A DNA stretch of 64,000 bases from an uncultured Gemmatimonadota bacterium (lineage in GTDB: Bacteria > JAAXHH01). Made by a program: the position numbers and the translations under genes. This document shows positions 2,119 to 11,968 of the stretch, one piece after another. Numbering within the stretch: position 1 is the first letter of the stretch; each line of letters begins with the position of its first letter. Below the pieces are notes generated by a model, which did no database searches, had not been told where the DNA came from, and saw nothing but the letters and a program-made list of their open reading frames with translations. The DNA lies in assembly GCA_951812955.1 (NCBI GenBank), contig OX638340.1:2240001-2304000 (forward strand), in the 5' to 3' direction.

Positions 2119-3717
2119 ATGGATCCATCAACGCGTCTGAGGACCAGGGATTGGCAGATCATGCCACACGATTCACAGCCAACAGACACGATCTGGTACT
2201 GCATTCGGCGAAATGGCATCGCGAAAGATGAAGGCTGGATCGGCGATGTCACGCTGGATGACTTGCCGAATCAGGTGGGCGTTGAACCGGGTGATACGTT
2301 CGAAGTTTGTATCGCTTCAGACTTTCAAACTGTACCGCCTGACCAGATATCCAGCTTCTTCTACAACCGGGACCGCGGGATTGTCGGCTTGGAGATGGCT
2401 TACGGTGATGAGACCTTGCGAATCGCGCCTACTCGAATGATCGCAGCGAATCTCGGGTTTGCCCGGGCCATGGAGAGATTCCGTCAACAGTTAAACATAA
2501 GCGCTGACGAATTCGCCACCAACGGCAGGCTGCGTGTTTTTTCCGCCAGGCAGGTCCTGGTACCGGGCGGAAGCATACCTGACCGAATGGAACTACATCG
2601 TGGATCAACACTCGTGACCGAGGCTCCGTCGGATGGCAGGGACCGAGCTGAGGTGCTGGCCTGTGGAATTAGTCGGTGGATGCTTCGAAATATGTCCGAG
2701 GATGGCGCGTTGCCCTACAAATACTGGCCTAGCCGGGGTAAAGAATCTCCGGCCGATAACGCCATTCGCCGGTTTCTTGCATCCCTGGCCCTTGAACGTC
2801 ACGGTAGATATTTCGATGACAAAGAAATTCGTGAGGCGGCCCGGCGCAACCTGGGCTTCAATCTGAAGCGGAATTTCAGGGTCATCGGCGGTGGAATAGG
2901 CGCCATAGTGGAACCAACAGGAGCGAAGCTTGGTGCGGCGGCGCTGGCCGCTTTGTGTATACTGGAGAGCCCGGCATTCAGTGATTTCAAGACCGAGTAC
3001 GACATGCTGACCGCTGGTGTGAACTCACTTGCGGATAAGGAAATGGGATTTCGTACATTCTTCTTTCCACCCGAACGCGACGGAGAAAACTGGAATTTCT
3101 ATTCGGGGGAAGCACTACTGTTCTGGGCCGAGGCCATGCGCCATGGCGCGCCGGGTGCCCCTACGCTGGAACGCTGCGCCGAGACTTTTGATAAGTGCCG
3201 GGAACGGCATTTTCGGGCACGGAACCCCGCTTTCGTTCCGTGGCATATACAGGCCTGCACATCCCTGTTCAAACAAACAAGGCGGCGTGAGTTCGTCGAT
3301 TTTGTGTTTGAGATCAGCGACTGGCTACTACCAATGCAGCAGTGGGACGGAATGTTGCCGGACCTTCGCGGTCGGTTCTACAATCCAAAACGACCGGATT
3401 TTGGACCGCCACACGCGGCTTCCACCGGAGCCTACCTCGAAGGTCTTGCGGACGCCTCGATGTTGGCGCAAATGGTAGGAGACTGTCCCCGTGCCAAAGC
3501 ATACCAACGAGTCGTAAACCGTGGGCTGCGTTCTCTACGTCAACTGCAGTTCCGCGATGCCTGCGACACTTTCTATATTTCAAAGAAACACCGTGTCATG
3601 GGCGCGATCCGTACGGAAGCCTACGACAATTCAGTTCGAGTCGACTCGGCAGCGCACGCCCTGATCGCGGCAGTAAAATGGCTGAAATCAGGACGTACTC
3701 ATTCGGTCGGCGCGTAG
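2119..3717 (+). CDS. Hypothetical 532-aa protein, possibly an all-alpha (alpha/alpha-toroid-like) fold. Function unknown.
   Basis: Long ORF with coding-like composition and no recognisable catalytic motif. It is not LanC-like (no CHG/WCHG zinc motifs). Its 3' end overlaps the 3' end of the convergent AspH-like gene by 19 bp. Confidence 0.5.
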   Translation: MDPSTRLRTRDWQIMPHDSQPTDTIWYCIRRNGIAKDEGWIGDVTLDDLPNQVGVEPGDTFEVCIASDFQTVPPDQISSFFYNRDRGIVGLEMAYGDETLRIAPTRMIAANLGFARAMERFRQQLNISADEFATNGRLRVFSARQVLVPGGSIPDRMELHRGSTLVTEAPSDGRDRAEVLACGISRWMLRNMSEDGALPYKYWPSRGKESPADNAIRRFLASLALERHGRYFDDKEIREAARRNLGFNLKRNFRVIGGGIGAIVEPTGAKLGAAALAALCILESPAFSDFKTEYDMLTAGVNSLADKEMGFRTFFFPPERDGENWNFYSGEALLFWAEAMRHGAPGAPTLERCAETFDKCRERHFRARNPAFVPWHIQACTSLFKQTRRREFVDFVFEISDWLLPMQQWDGMLPDLRGRFYNPKRPDFGPPHAASTGAYLEGLADASMLAQMVGDCPRAKAYQRVVNRGLRSLRQLQFRDACDTFYISKKHRVMGAIRTEAYDNSVRVDSAAHALIAAVKWLKSGRTHSVGA

Positions 3718-4334
3718 ATGTAGTGCCCGCGTCCTTTCTCCGGCAGCACGTCGAAAATCAAGTGCACCCGTGGTTCGTTTGTCGGGTTTCTCGCTTCGTG
3801 CAGCGCCTTGTTGTCGAACACCCACAGCTCGCCTTCCCGCATCACTATGGTTTCACCTTCTGCGGTCATTGGACTCCCCTCCGGGCTCCTCAGCACAAGG
3901 TGGTATCGATCACGTATTCGGTAGTAAGCGCCGGCGTCGGTATGAGGTCGAACCCACCCCTGAGGTTGCAAGGATACCAGTGTAGCGCGTCCAAGTACAC
4001 CCCGATGAAGCGTGGCGATCTCTTTACAGAACGCCAGCGTTCGGGGGAATTTTCTAGCAGTAGCAGTAGTGCGACTGTCATGGACGTCGTTGGCGTTTTT
4101 CGCTCCTGGAGGCAGTGGTTTTTTAGCGGTACGCAGAAAGATATTTTGGGTGTCGCGTTGACAACGAACCTTGCGTTGCCGACTGGTATCGGCGAGCCAA
4201 AGATCTGGTACTGTGTCCAATTCCAGCATTAGCGGTTCAATATCGATGCCCGTCGCGATCCGGGTGAAACGCTTACCTGCCGGTGACACATCATTTGATT
4301 CTTTACCGGGAATCACATCGGTCTTGTGTATCAC
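3699..4334 (-). CDS. Aspartyl/asparaginyl beta-hydroxylase family Fe(II)/2-oxoglutarate oxygenase (AspH/LpxO/CinX-like)
   Basis: Strong similarity to the AspH catalytic core: GWVRPHTDAG..YHLVL aligns with the human THVWPHTGPTN..MHLGLVI, and GELWVFDNKALHEARN..RVHLIFDV aligns with GKVLIFDDSFEHEVWQ..RLIFIVDV. Both His ligands and the 2OG-binding Arg region are conserved. Confidence 0.85.
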   Translation of the reverse strand: MIHKTDVIPGKESNDVSPAGKRFTRIATGIDIEPLMLELDTVPDLWLADTSRQRKVRCQRDTQNIFLRTAKKPLPPGAKNANDVHDSRTTATARKFPRTLAFCKEIATLHRGVLGRATLVSLQPQGWVRPHTDAGAYYRIRDRYHLVLRSPEGSPMTAEGETIVMREGELWVFDNKALHEARNPTNEPRVHLIFDVLPEKGRGHYIYAPTE

Positions 4335-4469
4335 AAACGACCACCCTTACCGCCATATGCCAATGGGATTGATCAGCACCATCTCAGTATTCAACACAAG
4401 TAGTTACGTATGCTGGAGCCAGCTCAACAGGCCAGAAAGTACACGTTCGGTTAATCGAACAGCCATGAA

Positions 4470-5483
4470 TCAGTCGTCATCGTCGTCATCTTTATCATCG
4501 TCGTCATCGTCATCGTCGTCATCGTCGTCATCATCATCGCCGTCGCCATCCCCGTCACCATCCCCGTCGCCATCGCCATCGCCATCGCCGTCACCATCGC
4601 CGTCGCCATCCCCGTCTCCATCACCATCACCGTCGCCATCTCCATCACCATCGCCGTCACCGTCGCCATCCCCATCGCCGTCCCCATCTCCATCGCCGTC
4701 GCCGTTACCTCCAGAGTTCCCACTGGGCGGTGGACTTAACTCTTCATCGCCGTCGCCATCCCCATCGCCGTCTCCATCACCACTGGGCGGTGGACTTAAC
4801 ACTTCGTCACCGTCGCCATCCCCGTCGCCATCCCCGTCTCCATCACCGTCGCCATCCCCGTCTCCATCACCGTCGCCATCGCCATCCCCATCGCCATCGC
4901 CATCACCGTCGCCATCGCCATCCCCATCGCCATCGCCGTCACCATCCCCATCACCATCACCGTCGCCATCACCGTCGCCATCCCCGTCCCCATCTCCGTC
5001 GCCATCCCCGGCCCCGTCCCCATCGCCATCGCCGTCACCATCGCCGTCGCCATCCCCGTCTCCATCACCGTCCCCATCACCGTCGCCATCCCCGTCCCCA
5101 TCACCATCACCGTCACCATCGCCGTCACCGTCACCATCGCCGTCCCCATCGCCACCATTTGAACTTGTGGTATTTGTTACCACACTTGCGTTGTCCTCGT
5201 TATTGCTACCTGCATCCCCGTTCCCATCCCCATTTCCGTTCCTATCTCCATTTCCGTCACCATCTCCATCTCCATCGCCATCTCCGTCCCCGTCGCCGTC
5301 CCCATCGCCGCTGCCACCCGGACTCTGAGCACTCCCCACCTGATTCGCACTCGTGGCGAATCCAGACCCTGATCCCATGGGGTTCAGATCGTTGTCCCCT
5401 CTGCAACCCAGGATCATGAGCAACGAAGCGACAGTCAGTTGCATTCTTCGCAACCATTGCATAATGGTTCGGCACAAGGCCAT
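4470..5483 (-). CDS. Lipoprotein made almost entirely of Gly-Asp dipeptide repeats (about 125 GD units), with two short EVLSPPPSG/EELSPPPSG spacers and a C-terminal poly-Asp tail (D15-K-D6)
   Basis: Minus-strand frame has an N-terminal signal peptide with RR n-region and lipobox (..ASLLMILGC). The (GD)n tract is uninterrupted, 337 aa and in frame. The other frames of the same DNA give SP-repeat or HR-rich shadow ORFs without start context. It is on the same strand as the AspH-like gene, 135 bp upstream of it. Confidence 0.6.
   Translation of the reverse strand: MALCRTIMQWLRRMQLTVASLLMILGCRGDNDLNPMGSGSGFATSANQVGSAQSPGGSGDGDGDGDGDGDGDGDGDGNGDRNGNGDGNGDAGSNNEDNASVVTNTTSSNGGDGDGDGDGDGDGDGDGDGDGDGDGDGDGDGDGDGDGDGDGDGDGDGAGDGDGDGDGDGDGDGDGDGDGDGDGDGDGDGDGDGDGDGDGDGDGDGDGDGDGDGDGDGDGDGDGDGDEVLSPPPSGDGDGDGDGDGDEELSPPPSGNSGGNGDGDGDGDGDGDGDGDGDGDGDGDGDGDGDGDGDGDGDGDGDGDGDGDGDGDGDGDDDDDDDDDDDDDDDKDDDDDD
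4473..5320. repeat. Roughly 830-bp period-6 (hexanucleotide, GTCGCC/GTCACC/ATCGCC variants) tandem repeat tract, with an embedded 60-bp direct duplication (cactgggcggtggacttaac twice) and a 3' GAT/GAC homocodon run
   Basis: Read directly from the sequence between 4473 and 5320. The period is a multiple of 3, so slippage would preserve reading frame. Confidence 0.9.
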
Positions 5484-5817
5484 GGCACGCTACCTATTTG
5501 CCGGTTTGGAAATACAGTACAGGAGTGTTATTTGATTGTAATACGGAGCACACACAATCATGAGGAACCCTACCTTTGCCGTGACAGGCTATAGGGAACG
5601 TCACGGCAGACACAGATAGTAGGTAACGTTGTGTACCCTAAATAAAACCGGATTCCAGCTTGGATGTCAATGATTTAGACTTCAAGGTGATCACAAGACC
5701 TTTACATGACACAGTAATCCGTCCACTTTCGCCATTTCGATTCCTATCACAGCAACTAGGAATACGGCACCGCGGCGACAGTCCTGGCCTTGCATACACG
5801 GGTATATCAATCAGGTA

Positions 5818-6177
5818 CTAAGGCTTGTCGATCCAGACCGGATCCGGCGTGATGCTCGTCTCTGGCGGCGGCCCGGTATCGGTCCATTCTTCCTCGTTCT
5901 CGAGGAGGAATCCGGGTTCGACCGACATGTCGTGATCGCAGATGATCTGGCAGGACAACCGTACCTCGCCGACCAGCCCTTTCTCGGAAAGTACCGCGTG
6001 CTCGGCCTCGGTCATCGTGTCCGGCTCGCCCTCACTGATGGTCACCCGGCAGGTTGTGCACTTGGCGTTCCCACCGCACCGGTGGCCGATGTTCACCCCG
6101 GTGCCCTCGATAGCCAGTACCAGACGCTGCCCGGAATCGACTTCGTTCTCCACTCCGTTGACGGTAAGTTTCGGCAT
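5818..6177 (-). CDS. [2Fe-2S] ferredoxin, adrenodoxin/putidaredoxin type
   Basis: C-x5-C-x2-C ... C cluster ligands (HRCGGNAKCTTCRV ... LSCQIIC). 119 aa, the typical size for this family. Confidence 0.75.
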   Translation of the reverse strand: MPKLTVNGVENEVDSGQRLVLAIEGTGVNIGHRCGGNAKCTTCRVTISEGEPDTMTEAEHAVLSEKGLVGEVRLSCQIICDHDMSVEPGFLLENEEEWTDTGPPPETSITPDPVWIDKP

Positions 6178-6274
6178 GATTCCCTGCTCCTTTCGCGTGT
6201 GTGCTAAACCAGTCTCAAGTGGGTTGTGACTCCATCTCGATCGAATTCAGTACAAGTATCTCCGTTTGCTACGA

Positions 6275-7066
6275 TTAAATAACGTGACCCAGCCGGTCCC
6301 GAGTATGTTCCAGGTCCACCCAGCGATGCGGTCCGTCGGTTACAGCGTAGCACACCTCGTAGACCGGATTCTCCGTGGCCTGCAGGGCCAGTTCGATGAT
6401 CCGCGTGATGTCCGCCTGGCTGCACCAGACCGATCGCAGGAAGGGTTCTGTTGCCTCGTTCTCCTTGTTGACCCATCCGATGCGAAGGCAGACGACGGAA
6501 AAATCGTGGGCATCATGGTAGGTGCGGCAGATCCCCTCGCCCCAGATCTTGCTGGCGGAATAGGGTTCCGTGGGCCGCGGCGGATCGGTGACCTTGACGA
6601 TAGGCATGGGATCGGGCAGCCCCTCCAGACGGCCCTTCAGTAGCGACACGTACGGTTCGTCAAATTGACCGTATCCCCAACTCGCCATGACGGAACTCGC
6701 GTAGATCATTCGCCTGATGCCCTGTTCCCGGCAGACCTCCAGCACGTTGTAGGTACCCCGGATGTTGGCGTCCAGAATGGTCTCGAAGGACGCGCCCGGA
6801 TCGGGGACGGCGCCGAGATGGACCACGGCGTCCATGCCCTCGAGAGCCCTGGACACGGCATCGCGATCGGTCAGATCGGCCAGTGAGAATCGATCTTCCG
6901 GGATGCGCAGGAGATCCTCGTCGTCGATGCGGTCCGACGACACGGTCCGGCGGCCGCTGCCGTAGGCTTCGTACTCATCCTTTCCGCTCAGATACCTGTA
7001 GGTCAGGTTGCCGATCAGTCCGTACGCTCCTGTTACGTGGACCTTCAAGGGTGTTCCTTCGCTCAT
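6275..7066 (-). CDS. NAD(P)-dependent epimerase/dehydratase family protein (short SDR-like)
   Basis: N-terminal Rossmann motif VTGAYGLIG, 263 aa. Confidence 0.75.
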   Translation of the reverse strand: MSEGTPLKVHVTGAYGLIGNLTYRYLSGKDEYEAYGSGRRTVSSDRIDDEDLLRIPEDRFSLADLTDRDAVSRALEGMDAVVHLGAVPDPGASFETILDANIRGTYNVLEVCREQGIRRMIYASSVMASWGYGQFDEPYVSLLKGRLEGLPDPMPIVKVTDPPRPTEPYSASKIWGEGICRTYHDAHDFSVVCLRIGWVNKENEATEPFLRSVWCSQADITRIIELALQATENPVYEVCYAVTDGPHRWVDLEHTRDRLGHVI

Positions 7067-7194
7067 CGATTCCTCCAGTTTAACTTCGGCAGATTGGTCG
7101 TACTACTTCTCCAACATACGATTACGCAAAAGTCGAATCATGCCTGCTTAAGATGTCTCGCTCTTCAGTCAGTGAATTTCGGTAATGGCCCTGC

Positions 7195-8826
7195 TCAGGC
7201 CTCGTCCATGAAAGGATAGCGCCAGTCCGTCGGCGGGACCATAGTTTCCTTGATCGTCCGGGCGCTCATCCACCGCAGCAGGTTCATCGGACTGCCCGCC
7301 TTGTCGTTCGTTCCGGACGCCCGGGCGCCACCGAAGGGCTGCTGTCCGACGACGGCCCCGGTGGGCTTGTCGTTGACGTAGAAATTACCGGCCGAGTTGC
7401 GGAGCGCATCCGATATGCGGACGATGGCTTCGCGGTCCTGCGCGAAGACGGAGCCGGTCAGGGCGTAGGGTGACGTGCCGTCGCAAAGCGTAAGCGTATC
7501 TTCCAACTGGTCGTCTTCGTAAACGTAGATCGTGAGCACGGGACCGAAGATTTCTTCTTCCATGGTTTTGAAACGCGGGTTCGTCGTCACGATTGTCGTC
7601 GGTTCGACGAACCAGCCTCGCTCGCGGTCGCAAACGCCGCCCGTGATGATCTCGGCGTCATCCGCCGAACGGGCGTATTCGATGTGACCGGCGATGTTTT
7701 CGAAGGAGGCCTCGTCGATCACGGCCGCCATGAAGTTGGTGAAGTCTTCGGGATCTCCCATCTTGATCTGCGAAGCTTCCGCCGTGAACCGATCCCTGAA
7801 TGCCGGCCACAGGGAACGGGGAATGTACATCCGGGAGGCCGCGGAACACTTCTGCCCCTGGTATTCGAAGGCGCCGCGTACCGCCGCCGCGACGAGGGCT
7901 TCCACGTCCGCTGAGGCGTGGACGAAGATGAAGTCCTTCCCTCCCGTCTCGCCCACGATGCGAGGGTAGTGCCTCATGCGCTCAAGGTTGCCCGCCACCG
8001 TGCGGTACATCCGCTGAAAGGTCTCTGTCGAACCGGTGAAATGGATCCCTGCCAGATCCGGGCTGTTCAGCACCGGATCGCCCACTTCGGCCCCGGATCC
8101 CGGGATGAAGTTAATCACGCCGGGGGGCAAACCGGCTTCTTGCAGCAGCCGCATGACGTGCCACGCCGAATAAACGGCCGAGGATGCCGGCTTCCAGAGG
8201 ACCGAGCAGCCGGTCAGCGCCGGCGCCGTGGGCAGGTTGCCGCCGATGGCCGTGAAATTGAACGGGGTTACGGCAAAGACGAACCCCTCGAGGGCCCGGT
8301 ACTCCAGTCGGTTCCACACCCCGACAGAGGATGCCGGCTGGTCGCTCATGAGCTGCGCGAGGTAGCTGACGTTGAATCGCCAGAAATCGATCAGTTCGCA
8401 GGCCGAATCGATCTCGGCCTGGTAGATCGTCTTGGACTGGCCCAGCATGGTGGCGGCGTTGACCGTCTGGCGCCAGGGACCGGCCAGCAAGTCCGCCGCT
8501 TTCGCTATAACCGACGCCCGGTGCTCCCAGGGCATATCCGCCCACGCGGCGCGGGCTTCCAGGGCCGCATCGATCGCCATACGGACCTCGACCGCTCCCG
8601 CTTTGTGATAGACGCCGAGATCGACTGTGTGATCGTGAGGCGCCCGTAGCGGTGCCGTGTTACCCGTCTTCACTTCGCGCCCGCCGATGATCAGTGGGAC
8701 CTCGACAGGCGAGGATTTCAACTCACCGAGCTTCGCCTTGACGGCGGCTCGTTCGGCCGATCCGGGCGCGTAGTCCAGTACCGGCTCGTTGTAGGGCTGA
8801 GGCGGGTTGAAGCGTGCGTTGGCCAT
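7195..8826 (-). CDS. pruA: L-glutamate gamma-semialdehyde (1-pyrroline-5-carboxylate) dehydrogenase, aldehyde dehydrogenase superfamily
   Basis: Start chosen at MANARFNPPQPYNEPVLDYAPGSAER (ATG at 8826). The ORF track extends a further 44 codons to 8958 in an Arg-rich extension. The ALDH catalytic Cys region FEYQGQKCSAASR is present. Confidence 0.85.
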   Translation of the reverse strand: MANARFNPPQPYNEPVLDYAPGSAERAAVKAKLGELKSSPVEVPLIIGGREVKTGNTAPLRAPHDHTVDLGVYHKAGAVEVRMAIDAALEARAAWADMPWEHRASVIAKAADLLAGPWRQTVNAATMLGQSKTIYQAEIDSACELIDFWRFNVSYLAQLMSDQPASSVGVWNRLEYRALEGFVFAVTPFNFTAIGGNLPTAPALTGCSVLWKPASSAVYSAWHVMRLLQEAGLPPGVINFIPGSGAEVGDPVLNSPDLAGIHFTGSTETFQRMYRTVAGNLERMRHYPRIVGETGGKDFIFVHASADVEALVAAAVRGAFEYQGQKCSAASRMYIPRSLWPAFRDRFTAEASQIKMGDPEDFTNFMAAVIDEASFENIAGHIEYARSADDAEIITGGVCDRERGWFVEPTTIVTTNPRFKTMEEEIFGPVLTIYVYEDDQLEDTLTLCDGTSPYALTGSVFAQDREAIVRISDALRNSAGNFYVNDKPTGAVVGQQPFGGARASGTNDKAGSPMNLLRWMSARTIKETMVPPTDWRYPFMDEA

Positions 8827-9095: not shown

Positions 9096-10184
9096 ATGAG
9101 CACCGATCAAGCTGACCAGGAACACGGCATCAAGGCGGTCAACCAGGAATTCACGCAATACGACCAGGTGAAGAAGGAACAGACCTACAACCTGGCCGAA
9201 GGCGCGGCGGAGGAGGAATTCGACGAGGAAACGCAGATCAGGACCTGCGACATGAACCTGTTCCATCACGGCGGACCGGAGGGCAAGGCGCAGTTCGCCC
9301 GGGACATCGGTGAGGCCATGGAGGGCATCGGTTTCGTGATCCTCGAGAACCATGAAATCCCGGCCAGCCTGTACGTCGAGGCCGAGCGCAAGGTAGCCGA
9401 GTTCTTCACGTCCACGCCTATAGCGGATAAGATGAGATACGAGGCCCAGCGGCACGGGTCGGTCAACCAGGGCTACTTCCCCATCAAGCAGACCAGCCGG
9501 ATGCATCCCGATCTCGTCGAGGGCTGGGTATTCTGCCGGCGGGCCTTCAACCTGGGCGAGAACCCGGACTACCGCGAAACGGACTACTGGCCCGCGACCG
9601 GATACGAACCCTTTTTCCGCCAGGTCATCCGGCATCACGAAGGTCTGATCCTGCCCCTCATGCAGAGCATCCTGGCCTATCTCGGCTGTGACTCGACAAT
9701 GTACGACGAGAAACTCACGCGAACGAACTTCGGCTTCCGGCTCAACTACTACCCGCCCATCACCCGGGAGGACGACGAGTCCGGCGCCGGACGCATGCTG
9801 GGCCATGAGGACGTGGACCTGTTCACCATCCTGCCCTCCCACGGGGTGGATGGCCTGCAGGTGCTCAACCGCGAAAACATGAAGTGGATCCGCCTCAATC
9901 CGCCCGAGGGCAGCATCATCATCAACACCGGCGACTACATGCAGCGGATCACCAACGACCGCCTTCCTTCCACCACGCACCGTGTCAGCAAGCCTATCGA
10001 CACCAGTCTCTACGAATCGGCCCGCATCAGCATTCCCATGGCCGTATACGTCTGGGAGGAAGAAATGCTCGAGGTGCTGCCCAACACGGGCGAGCCCAAG
10101 TACGAACCCATCTCCGCCGTCCAGTTCCACACCCGGACCACGAGCAAGTACTACGGCGACGATTATGCGGTGGATGATGATTGA
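9096..10184 (+). CDS. 2-oxoglutarate/Fe(II)-dependent oxygenase, isopenicillin-N-synthase-like (DIOX_N + 2OG-FeII_Oxy) family
   Basis: HxD...H facial triad (GHEDVDLFTILP ... STTHRV) with the DSBH core GLQVLNRENMKWIRLNPPEGSIIINTGD. Confidence 0.75.
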   Translation: MSTDQADQEHGIKAVNQEFTQYDQVKKEQTYNLAEGAAEEEFDEETQIRTCDMNLFHHGGPEGKAQFARDIGEAMEGIGFVILENHEIPASLYVEAERKVAEFFTSTPIADKMRYEAQRHGSVNQGYFPIKQTSRMHPDLVEGWVFCRRAFNLGENPDYRETDYWPATGYEPFFRQVIRHHEGLILPLMQSILAYLGCDSTMYDEKLTRTNFGFRLNYYPPITREDDESGAGRMLGHEDVDLFTILPSHGVDGLQVLNRENMKWIRLNPPEGSIIINTGDYMQRITNDRLPSTTHRVSKPIDTSLYESARISIPMAVYVWEEEMLEVLPNTGEPKYEPISAVQFHTRTTSKYYGDDYAVDDD

Positions 10185-10380: not shown

Positions 10381-11136
10381 ATGACTCCCCACGAAAGATA
10401 CCTCTTCGACCTGCAGGGTTTTATCGAGGTCCCGGACGCGTTGGACGCCGGGCAGCTCGCAGAACTGAACGGCATACTGGACGAGAAGATCGACGGGGCC
10501 ATGGCACCCGGCGCCACCACCCACCGATTCGGCTTCACCCTGCTCGACTGGGGACCAACCTACCGGGAACTGATCGACAATCCGCGGATAGATCCTTATC
10601 TGGAACAACTGATCGGTCCGAAGTACCGGCTGGACCACGATTATGCCGATATCATCCGAAAAGGCGACGGTCCAATCGGCACGACCCTCCACGGAGGCGC
10701 CATCCCCTTCGACCCCCTCTACTCCTACACCTGCACCAACGAAGAGATCCGTTGCGGCCTGACTGTGGTCGCCTACTACCTGAAGGACGTAAATCCAGGC
10801 GACGGCGGATTCGGCTGCGTGCCCGGCAGCCATAAGAGCAACTTCCGGTTCCCGGACGAGTGGCGCAACCTCAAGACCGACCAGCCCTTCATCCGCGCCG
10901 TAACCGGCAAGGCCGGCACCGCCGTCATATTCACCGAGGCCCTGACCCACGGCACCATGCCCTGGCACGGTGACGAGCGCCGCACCCTCTTCTACAAGTA
11001 CTCGCCCAATTCGATATCCTGGTACGCGGAATACTATGACGCCGACCGGTACGAAGGTCTGACGGAACGGCAGCAGGAGATCCTTGAGGCACCGAACGCG
11101 CGGTATGGAGAACGGTCTAAGCGTGGGGTTGTGTAG
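10381..11136 (+). CDS. Phytanoyl-CoA dioxygenase (PhyH) family protein
   Basis: N-terminal ERYLFDLQGFIEVPDALDAGQL, typical of PhyH-family proteins. 251 aa. Confidence 0.65.
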   Translation: MTPHERYLFDLQGFIEVPDALDAGQLAELNGILDEKIDGAMAPGATTHRFGFTLLDWGPTYRELIDNPRIDPYLEQLIGPKYRLDHDYADIIRKGDGPIGTTLHGGAIPFDPLYSYTCTNEEIRCGLTVVAYYLKDVNPGDGGFGCVPGSHKSNFRFPDEWRNLKTDQPFIRAVTGKAGTAVIFTEALTHGTMPWHGDERRTLFYKYSPNSISWYAEYYDADRYEGLTERQQEILEAPNARYGERSKRGVV

Positions 11137-11214
11137 GTGGGCTTTACGGATAGACCAGTTGATATTACGACCACATTTATTTGCTCATTGATTTACTGTA
11201 TCTCGAGGTTACAA

Positions 11215-11505
11215 ATGGACGTTAAGGAAGCCGTAAGTACGGCCATAAAACATATTGCAGATGTATACTCGGAAGAGGGAATCTCGCATATTGGATTAGA
11301 AGAGGTAGAATACGACGAGATTAACTCACAATGGAACGTGACCGTTGGATTTGCACGTAAGTGGGACTTCCCTACTCCGGTTCTTATCCCCGTATTACCT
11401 TCACCAAGACCAAACCAAAGAACCTACAAAATCGTAGTAATTCGTGATAGAGACAAGAAGGTCACCGCAATGAAGATAAGGGATTTAGCTACGTCGAATG
11501 AATAG
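11215..11505 (+). CDS. Small hypothetical protein, possible cognate partner of the downstream PIN protein. First gene of the lower-GC insert.
   Basis: ATG with AGG Shine-Dalgarno about 8 nt upstream. The ORF track starts at a GTG at 11137, immediately after the PhyH stop. The 3' end overlaps the PIN gene by 8 nt. No recognisable antitoxin fold. Confidence 0.4.
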   Translation: MDVKEAVSTAIKHIADVYSEEGISHIGLEEVEYDEINSQWNVTVGFARKWDFPTPVLIPVLPSPRPNQRTYKIVVIRDRDKKVTAMKIRDLATSNE

Positions 11506-11968
11506 TGTGCTTATAGATACGAATCTACTTGTCCTTTTGGTTGTAGGATCTACCGATAGAGAGTTTATTAGTCGACATAAACGCACAAAATCGTTCATAC
11601 CCAGAGACTATGACGAACTGACACGTCTGTTGTCGGGATCTCGTGAGTTATGGGTTACTTCTCACTGTCTGGCAGAGACATCGAATCTTCTGAAGCAAAC
11701 CGATAAAACAAAAGCACAGATCTTGTTACATACTCTTGCGGCCTACTGCGATATTGCCCGCGAATCGCATATTCCCAAAGAGACGGTATTTGGATACGAG
11801 AACTACCGCAGACTTGGCGTCACCGACACCGGCTTCATATACTCATCCGAAACAGTCTCTCGATCTATAACAGTAGATTTCAACTTGTACATCGAACTGA
11901 GTAACCTTGGCAGAGAAGTGATAAACTTCCACCACATCCGTGCTTCGTATCTCCAGAATGTCGATTGA
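11498..11968 (+). CDS. PIN-domain protein (VapC-like putative RNase toxin)
   Basis: N-terminal MNSVLIDTNLLVLL is the hallmark PIN start. 156 aa. Located in the lower-GC island. Confidence 0.6.
   Translation: MNSVLIDTNLLVLLVVGSTDREFISRHKRTKSFIPRDYDELTRLLSGSRELWVTSHCLAETSNLLKQTDKTKAQILLHTLAAYCDIARESHIPKETVFGYENYRRLGVTDTGFIYSSETVSRSITVDFNLYIELSNLGREVINFHHIRASYLQNVD

Follow-up and report, generated by a model that had tools for sequence, protein, structure and literature searches.

Three neighbouring genes in a 64,000-nucleotide stretch of an uncultured Gemmatimonadota genome (JAAXHH01; contig OX638340.1 of assembly GCA_951812955.1, positions 2,240,001 to 2,304,000; hereafter the window) encode an exported protein with long (Gly-Asp)n tracts (the GD protein), a small basic Fe(II)/2-oxoglutarate (2OG) oxygenase of the aspartyl/asparaginyl β-hydroxylase type (the AspH-like protein) and a basic protein of ~520 residues, which we call p532. 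These genes very probably form one functional module, and the GD tract is probably the substrate of the enzymes encoded beside it. By analogy with characterized hydroxylases, β-hydroxylation of Asp is, by a narrow preference, the reaction we expect. As a whole, we think it reasonably likely that this is a cytoplasmic two-enzyme system that modifies, most likely by β-hydroxylation, the Asp residues in (GD)n tracts of exported proteins. The module and its elements are arranged in the window as follows.

5403-5483, minus strand: signal peptide with lipobox (..SLLMILG-C27) of the GD protein, read from the sequence
4470-5483, minus strand: GD lipoprotein gene (337 codons, 337 aa), from its open reading frame (ORF) and translation; proposed substrate or carrier
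4536-5309, minus strand: (GGN-GAY)n tracts of the GD protein, from the repeat scan and codon counts
4473-4538, minus strand: C-terminal poly-Asp tail, D15-K-D6, from the translation of the GD gene
4335-4469, minus strand: 135 nt separating the GD gene from the AspH-like gene, including a weak terminator-like hairpin at 4461-4444
3699-4334, minus strand: AspH-like Fe(II)/2OG oxygenase gene (211 aa, GTG start, isoelectric point (pI) 9.4), matching PF05118
2119-3717, plus strand: p532 gene (532-aa ORF, or 518 aa from the probable start at 2161), running towards the AspH-like gene

The GD and AspH-like ORFs of an initial annotation of this DNA were recovered on the minus strand with the same boundaries. 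The GD gene lies 135 nt upstream of the AspH-like gene on the same strand. The spacer hairpin, recognized only by its match to a consensus, might reduce read-through from one gene to the next. The 3' ends of the p532 and AspH-like genes overlap by 19 nt at 3699-3717, and a comparable tail-to-tail overlap or abutment was present in most related loci (at 6618/6636 in L001 and 6678/6702 in L003, where L numbers denote individual loci).

To follow the module across genomes, we scanned one genome per GTDB species with the AspH-like alignment, which returned 139 relatives; 80 loci were kept, all from metagenome-assembled genomes (MAGs) of Vicinamibacterales, Thermoanaerobaculia, other Acidobacteriota, Gemmatimonadota, Alpha- and Gammaproteobacteria, and Binatia. 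With a GD tract scored as a run of at least five GGN-GAY units, 76 of the 80 loci had one inside the module; in 72 it was on the strand of the AspH-like gene and immediately upstream of it, in three upstream on the opposite strand and in one downstream. There were no such runs in 452 kb of outer flanks of the related loci and none elsewhere in the 64-kb window; the pairing of GD tract and AspH-like gene is far beyond chance. p532 gave tblastn matches in all 84 loci in the set at that stage (the GD-tract counts use 80), with 58-91% identity, and was nearly always convergent with and abutting the AspH-like gene. The closest relatives of the window, L001 (92% identity) and L006 (90%), are syntenic with it.

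The proteins that carry the tract vary from locus to locus. Some have a lipobox and a poly-D tail, some contain RTX repeats or a PG_binding_1 domain, some are membrane-anchored and end in ..DDLADSLRDGRF (..SLRDGRF), and others possess a C-terminal GAFYGDDH..GSFERDRLRGVFGTLRE domain; RTX carriers were found in both Vicinamibacterales and Gammaproteobacteria, and ..SLRDGRF carriers in Alpha- and Gammaproteobacteria and Binatia. All of these carriers look exported. Because they differ in architecture, the GD tract is the element they have in common, which is the pattern one would expect if the adjacent enzymes recognize the tract. The initial annotation had suggested looking for co-occurrence of AspH homologues with Asp-rich repeat ORFs in other genomes, and the two do co-occur in these loci, the number of GD units being variable. 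It had further proposed the two genes as a candidate enzyme-substrate pair; the linkage in 76 of 80 loci, despite such different carriers, speaks for this, and what the proposal overlooked was the third partner, p532.

Several further observations concern the organization of the module in particular lineages. In Thermoanaerobaculia and their relatives (L019, L021, L023, L030, L033, L035, L039, L043, and L050), the GD ORF reads in frame and stop-free into the AspH-like gene; we read this junction in six loci (e.g., L023:3450-3700), and its linker, ..PPWQFVAFAPAAVGIR.., is conserved between lineages. This could be a true lipoprotein-GD-AspH fusion or the AspH-like gene could use an internal GTG start, and the fusion is not established; if it is true, the oxygenase would lie outside the cytoplasm in these loci. 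A fourth conserved gene, absent from the window, was found in 22 loci, mostly of Alpha- and Gammaproteobacteria together with L061 from Binatia, and in most it lies just upstream of p532 (e.g., L048:3652-4299 and L069:8148-8984, both on the minus strand). Its product of ~190 aa has N-terminal membrane helices and a C-terminal helix-turn-helix with a weak GerE/LuxR match (E 0.005, below cutoff), and a role as a regulator specific to the module is conceivable. Two copies of the module are present on different contigs of single MAGs in CATOTG01 (L030 and L039) and JAJEDW01 (L017 and L047); the JAJEDW01 copies have diverged, with AspH-like proteins 74% and 68% identical to that of the window and GD genes of unequal size.

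The GD protein of the window starts with MALCRTIMQWLRRMQLTVASLLMILG-C, a lipoprotein-type signal, and its N terminus, MALCRTIMQWLRRMQLTVASLLMILGC, fits a lipobox by pattern: ..LLMILG-C27 conforms to [LVI][ASTVI][GAS]C, with a Leu at −2 that is less usual, and the alternative start at M8 would leave a 19-residue signal before the Cys. Orthologous carriers in other phyla keep the lipobox (..FFIASCGDD.., e.g., in Vicinamibacterales). Five uninterrupted GD runs of 9, 23, 34, 6, and 28 units are separated by the spacers DEVLSPPPSG and DEELSPPPSG and by an N/S/T-rich stretch, and the mature protein of 311 residues has three basic residues and a net charge of ~ −127. The lipoprotein with its Gly-Asp repeat and D15-K-D6 tail was thus as originally described, and the numbers given for it were too high: we counted 104 Gly-Asp dipeptides and 126 Asp (with 119 Gly), where ~125 and >140 had been claimed. 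Poly-D tails of 8 to >30 residues terminate the lipoprotein-type carriers in many loci. The gene encodes 337 aa in the window and 394 aa in L001, and in L006 its open frame has 165 codons with 44 GD units, so the tract grows and shrinks; assemblies from short reads cannot be fully trusted in such repeats, and complete long-read chromosomes show the same arrangement. NCBIfam matches of the GD protein to SdrC, SdrD, ClfA, and ClfB are due to repeat likeness only, and its Pfam TrAA12 and NCBIfam MSCRAMM/serine-rich matches were dismissed as low-complexity hits that were far below cutoffs or confined to repeat columns.

The repeat could be read in more than one way. Codons in the GD runs are mixed (GGC 42, GGG 26, GGT 24, GGA 12; GAT 62, GAC 42), and because GGN-GAY reverse-complements to TCN-CCR, third-position variation cannot fix the frame; nor does the fact that the peptide repeat is perfect and the DNA repeat matched only ~72%. 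A hexanucleotide microsatellite, or a Ser-Pro protein encoded on the opposite strand by an ORF at 4171-5328 (plus strand) that stays open for 385 codons, would be compatible with the same wobble variation as the GD frame. We give this explanation a negligible chance. The Ser-Pro ORF runs antisense to the AspH-like gene over their overlap and has no signal sequence, whereas in many phyla the GD frame has a conserved lipobox start and a poly-D end; in relatives it continues in frame into RTX and peptidoglycan-binding domains with strong Pfam scores (HemolysinCabind, E 9e-42 and 2e-57; PG_binding_1, 6e-12), and in 72 of 76 cases the tract and the AspH-like gene are on one strand. On these sequence features, we consider GD settled as the true coding frame, and its signal peptide, poly-D tail, and in-frame domains rule out the Ser-Pro ORF as a real gene.

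The AspH-like protein was assigned to the AspH family at the outset, with both His ligands and the 2OG-binding Arg recognized, and the Pfam profile bore this out: residues 86-196 match PF05118 (Asp_Arg_Hydrox) with an E value of 1.7e-22 and 80.4 bits against a cutoff of 22.6. Its homologues form 604 clusters at 90% identity; the best 120 are 65-92% identical to the query, and all 120 carry PF05118 among the matches listed. Invariant in the alignment are H131-x-D133, H179, and R189, the HxD...H...R motif of 2OG oxygenases, and the structural model has a double-stranded β-helix (DSBH) fold with the iron ligands and the 2OG-binding basic residue in place, a fold that by itself cannot tell a peptide substrate from any other. 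The protein is therefore predicted to be a catalytically intact member of the AspH/proline-hydroxylase clade. It has no tetratricopeptide repeat (TPR) domain, and no signal peptide or transmembrane segment was seen on inspection of its 211 residues by eye. Assignment to LpxO (28.8 bits against a cutoff of 500) or OlsC (16 against 450) was rejected, the protein having no hydrophobic segment, as was assignment to TIGR04531 (19 against 300). Orthology to animal AspH was ruled out as well, in view of the missing TPR and membrane anchor and the full HxD...H triad. The median pI is 9.4 in the AspH-like alignment and 9.5 in that of p532, and basic proteins of this kind would suit a polyanionic substrate with a charge of ~ −127. 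With no signal peptide visible, both are presumably cytoplasmic.

The p532 protein of the window has no Pfam and no NCBIfam match, 34 scanned members of its family gave only sporadic matches to known families with E > 0.1, and no sequence relatives were found in the PDB. A full profile search returned 1896 representatives (50% clustering) at E ≤ 1e-3 and 448 at E ≤ 1e-30, and invariant polar residues are abundant in the alignment. Its AlphaFold2 model (mean predicted local distance difference test score 71.6) comprises an N-terminal α/β domain and a C-terminal six-hairpin (α/α)6 barrel, which shares 7-13% identity with its structural neighbours; the C-terminal domain has the six-hairpin fold and, by sequence and catalytic residues, could not be placed in a defined glycoside hydrolase or epimerase family. 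The N-terminal domain gave weak Foldseek matches (E ~1e-3, TM 0.43-0.47) to 1zq7 and 1vaj, which we take to be AMMECR1 homologues; an AMMECR1-like domain here is a lead only.

Fusions and distant relatives tie p532 to both the oxygenase and the acidic tract. We scanned 19 long p532-family representatives (762-1285 aa) for domains, and seven of them combine PF05118 and p532-like domains in one polypeptide, in both orders and with the subfamily motifs retained, which is classic evidence that two proteins work together. Four are fused to Mur-ligase M and C domains (P0248, P0265, P0283, and P0336), two to ATP-grasp (P0300 and P0331) and one to a methyltransferase and FAD_binding_4 (P0272). The ligase and ATP-grasp partners are carboxylate-activating, of the kind that serves poly-acidic peptides (cyanophycin synthetase, PgsB, RimK); no GD tract was seen in the two such contexts inspected, L088 and L091. 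The link to acidic tracts persists in distant relatives, which over their p532-like part have 36-45% identity to the p532 of the window. An AspH-AspH-p532 fusion (L085) is convergent with a 618-aa protein of ~60 GD units, and a 229-aa protein that combines a D11 run with RTX-like repeats precedes a p532-AspH fusion (L086); the fusion of L087 directly follows a Peptidase_C39 ABC exporter (PCAT) and an HlyD-type adaptor, as in clusters for RiPPs (peptides made by the ribosome and then post-translationally modified). Stand-alone p532-like genes (45% identity) adjoin the gene of a (GD)31-polyD-subtilase-like protein in L089/L090 and that of a 931-aa protein with ~75 GD units in L092.

By these comparisons, the link between p532 and GD tracts is at least as deep as that between AspH-like genes and GD tracts, for which reason we rate the enzyme-substrate pair of the initial annotation as partly, not fully, supported. 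Since p532 is present in 84 of 84 loci, is fused to PF05118 in distant relatives and in two distant lineages stands beside GD proteins with no AspH-like gene detected in the DNA examined, the system is better described as a two-enzyme module, in which the AspH-like protein may not be the sole or primary enzyme acting on the tract. In the L089 region (3403-8248; GCA_028284045.1), the p532-like gene lies between a tyrosinase gene, accompanied by a 176-aa neighbour, and the convergent GD gene, an extracytoplasmic function sigma factor gene follows, and there is no AspH-like gene within 5 kb.

We infer the following order of events and physiological role. The oxygenase and p532 would act jointly on the GD tract, unfolded and polyanionic, while the protein is still in the cytoplasm and has yet to be exported. 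The oxygenase would hydroxylate the β-carbon of Asp residues that precede Gly, many times per chain, and p532 would either recruit or bind the acidic tract or catalyze a second step on hydroxy-Asp. Lipoprotein forms would then leave by the Sec and Lol pathways, and RTX forms by type I secretion. The product at the surface would be poly(Gly-β-hydroxyAsp), whose α-hydroxy-carboxylate side chains would chelate Ca2+ and Fe3+ more strongly than Asp does. The cation-binding or biomineralization-type role originally suggested for the GD lipoprotein is plausible as chemistry.

Several points weigh against this scheme. The GD tract is missing in four of the 80 loci: in L013 it has been lost, with a transposase-like ORF (4552-5616) directly upstream of the AspH-like gene; L007 likewise has a transposase-like ORF (2990-4513) directly upstream of the AspH-like gene, and a Big_9/cadherin-like (Ig/cadherin-like) lipoprotein replaces the GD protein; L012 has a shorter related lipoprotein ORF where the GD gene is expected; and L082 is GD-less because of a contig end. 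No AspH-like sequence was detected in the examined DNA of L089/L090 and L092, the latter reaching only ~590 nt past the p532-like gene, so a GD tract can have p532 as its only linked partner, and the key chemistry may reside in p532. Modification of a Sec substrate before export requires a time window that we have assumed, and the likeness drawn below between the AspH-like subfamily and the Asp hydroxylase SmaO is one of published specificity.

If p532 does define the chemistry on the GD tract, the oxygenase would be preparatory, supplying a hydroxy-Asp intermediate, or an optional accessory, and the final residue would be derived from hydroxy-Asp, for example by oxidative cleavage, dehydration, glycosylation, or cross-linking, much as SmaO and SmaX convert Asp via hydroxy-Asp to aminomalonate. 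We regard this as rather unlikely, and it is compatible with much of the scheme above. It would account for p532 being the most constant member of the module and for its ~45% identical relatives beside GD proteins in L089 and L092, although AspH-like genes may sit elsewhere in those genomes. The many invariant polar residues of p532 are typical of enzymes, and its fold class includes hydrolases, epimerases, a dehydratase-isomerase, and the transaldolase AprG, but that similarity is generic at 7-13% identity, no cofactor or catalytic motif can be assigned, and no family or solved relative is detectable by sequence. Other members of the p532 family are fused to carboxylate activators with Mur-ligase or ATP-grasp domains, and a hydroxylase followed by a second enzyme on the Asp residues of DGDG has a precedent (PMC12186529); p532 is, however, not an HD-domain protein like SmaX, and it could equally be a noncatalytic recruitment scaffold. 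More remote from our scheme, the GD tract may do no more than bind Ca2+ or serve as a passive acidic spacer or stalk, with enzymes that act on something else, such as a lipid, a small metabolite, or a free amino acid, and remain neighbours through co-regulation or co-transfer. The nearest solved relatives of the AspH-like protein do hydroxylate free proline, PF05118 includes lipid hydroxylases, with weak NCBIfam matches to LpxO and OlsC in our protein, and several carriers have their GD tract between an anchor and a functional domain, as a spacer would be. We find this improbable: the linkage is kept in at least five phyla or classes, among which all other neighbours differ, and in fusion-protein lineages at <50% identity; the GD or poly-D tract is the sole element common to the neighbouring proteins; the LpxO, OlsC, and TIGR04531 scores fall far under their cutoffs (29, 16, and 19 against 500, 450, and 300 bits); and the AspH-like protein and p532 are both basic, as expected for binding of a polyanion.

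Other genes of the window do not appear to belong to this two-enzyme module. Its Fer2, epimerase, aldehyde dehydrogenase, and ABC permease genes are conserved in the closest relatives only and not beyond, and were ruled out as module parts on that ground. Two further oxygenase genes lie 5-7 kb away, one at 9096-10184 (plus strand; 2OG-FeII_Oxy and DIOX_N), which is syntenic in the closest relative L001, and one at 10381-11136 (plus strand; PhyH); no widely shared ORF cluster among the 80 loci corresponded to them, with no test aimed at them, and they appear to lie outside the module. At 11137-11968 (plus strand), adjacent ORFs of 122 and 156 aa overlap by 8 nt and look like a toxin-antitoxin-type pair.

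The distribution of the module points to marine animal hosts. The MKWU contigs, to which L001 belongs, come from the sponge Aplysina aerophoba (PMC5649159, PMC5099237), 'APA_bin' MAGs are symbionts of the same sponge (PMC11706023), and the names of several further isolates hint at sponge or coral holobionts. The closest p532 falls within the same phylum or class for 72 of 75 loci, and the best cross-phylum identity of 65-76% is unusually high, which is compatible with old horizontal spread among co-habiting lineages. If our reading is correct, about a hundred Asp residues could be hydroxylated in a single exported bacterial protein, a scale so far associated with collagen and plant cell-wall proteins, and two large uncharacterized families, the AspH-like subfamily (604 clusters) and p532 (1896 representatives), would gain a function. 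The module would then be a candidate symbiosis factor, acting through surface binding of Ca2+ and Fe3+, protection from proteases, or interaction with the host matrix. β-Hydroxy-Asp is the iron-binding unit of many marine siderophores, and a surface polymer built from this residue would represent a novel type of material for handling metals. More tentatively, and with less confidence than in the reaction itself, we can envisage an unrecognized system of post-translational modification across marine animal-associated phyla that turns (GD)n into long poly(β-hydroxy-Asp) or further-processed chains as a metal-chelating surface polymer, with p532 as the founder of a new family of acidic-tract enzymes that takes AspH-like, Mur-ligase, or ATP-grasp partners according to lineage.

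The nearest parallels to this arrangement come from repeat proteins and from other Asp hydroxylases. In staphylococci, SdgA and SdgB are encoded next to the Ser-Asp repeat proteins (ClfA, SdrC/D/E) and modify them in the cytoplasm ahead of export, serine-rich repeat adhesins have dedicated Gtf enzymes, and substrates of type I secretion are likewise known to be modified in the cytoplasm before they are exported. The Ser-Asp system resembles the module in having a surface protein with a long X-Asp repeat as a stalk and its modifying enzymes encoded alongside; it differs in that Ser is modified, by transfer of N-acetylglucosamine through glycosyltransferase-family enzymes, and in that its hosts are Gram-positive pathogens and not marine symbionts. 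Collagen and extensin prolyl 4-hydroxylases are similar in that a 2OG oxygenase repeatedly modifies a low-complexity repeat (X-Pro-Gly; Ser-Pro4) of a secreted structural protein, and in plants the hydroxyl is subsequently glycosylated. L-Proline cis-4-hydroxylase and proline 3-hydroxylase (4p7w/4p7x, 1e5r), by contrast, are enzymes of ~290 aa whose substrates are free amino acids; they have neither a p532 partner nor a conserved neighbour that encodes a protein substrate.

Within PF05118, peptidyl-Asp β-hydroxylation is the activity of CinX and human AspH, the latter binding iron through two His only. Human AspH and the bacterial CinX/DurX are only ~20% identical to the AspH-like protein, and the human enzyme has a TPR and a type II membrane anchor, whereas the AspH-like protein has neither and possesses an HxD...H triad instead. 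The substrate of AspH is a folded EGF domain with a consensus motif and that of CinX a single Asp in a lanthipeptide; what sets the AspH-like subfamily apart from both is a basic motif of its own at the N terminus (DTSRQRKVRCQRDTQNIFLR) and the obligatory partnership with p532.

The closest biochemical counterpart is the graspetide-type RiPP cluster of SmaO, SmaX, and SmaA (Kim et al. 2025, PMC12186529). SmaO, an Fe(II)/2OG oxygenase, converts two Asp of DGDG to L-erythro-β-hydroxy-Asp; it needs Gly after Asp, rejects Asn, Glu, and Ala, and acts only in DGDG/GDG, after which SmaX makes aminomalonate from the hydroxy-Asp, and many predicted precursors place Asp in Gly-rich regions (PMC12186529). 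We found no description of GD-repeat proteins with an AspH-like/p532 module in the literature, where coverage of subscription journals is incomplete; the statement of the initial annotation that it knew of no comparable bacterial system is softened by SmaO and SmaA (PMC12186529). No ATP-grasp or leader peptide was found in the module of the window, unlike in graspetide clusters, and where SmaX is an HD-domain partner, p532 has a six-hairpin fold and matches neither HD nor DUF6817. Asp hydroxylases dedicated to a substrate that is itself gene-encoded are already known from CinX and SmaO; what is new here are the proposed giant repeat substrates on exported proteins, the obligatory partner family p532 and the distribution centred on marine holobionts. 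SmaA is a short leader-core peptide with two target Asp, whereas the carriers described here are exported proteins of 130 to >1000 aa with tens to >100 GD units. Common to both systems are a D-G sequence encoded in the cluster, here as the proposed substrate, and a second dedicated enzyme (PMC12186529), and the known SmaO-SmaX fusions (PMC12186529) are paralleled by the AspH-p532 fusions, of which that in L087 follows a PCAT exporter as in such clusters.

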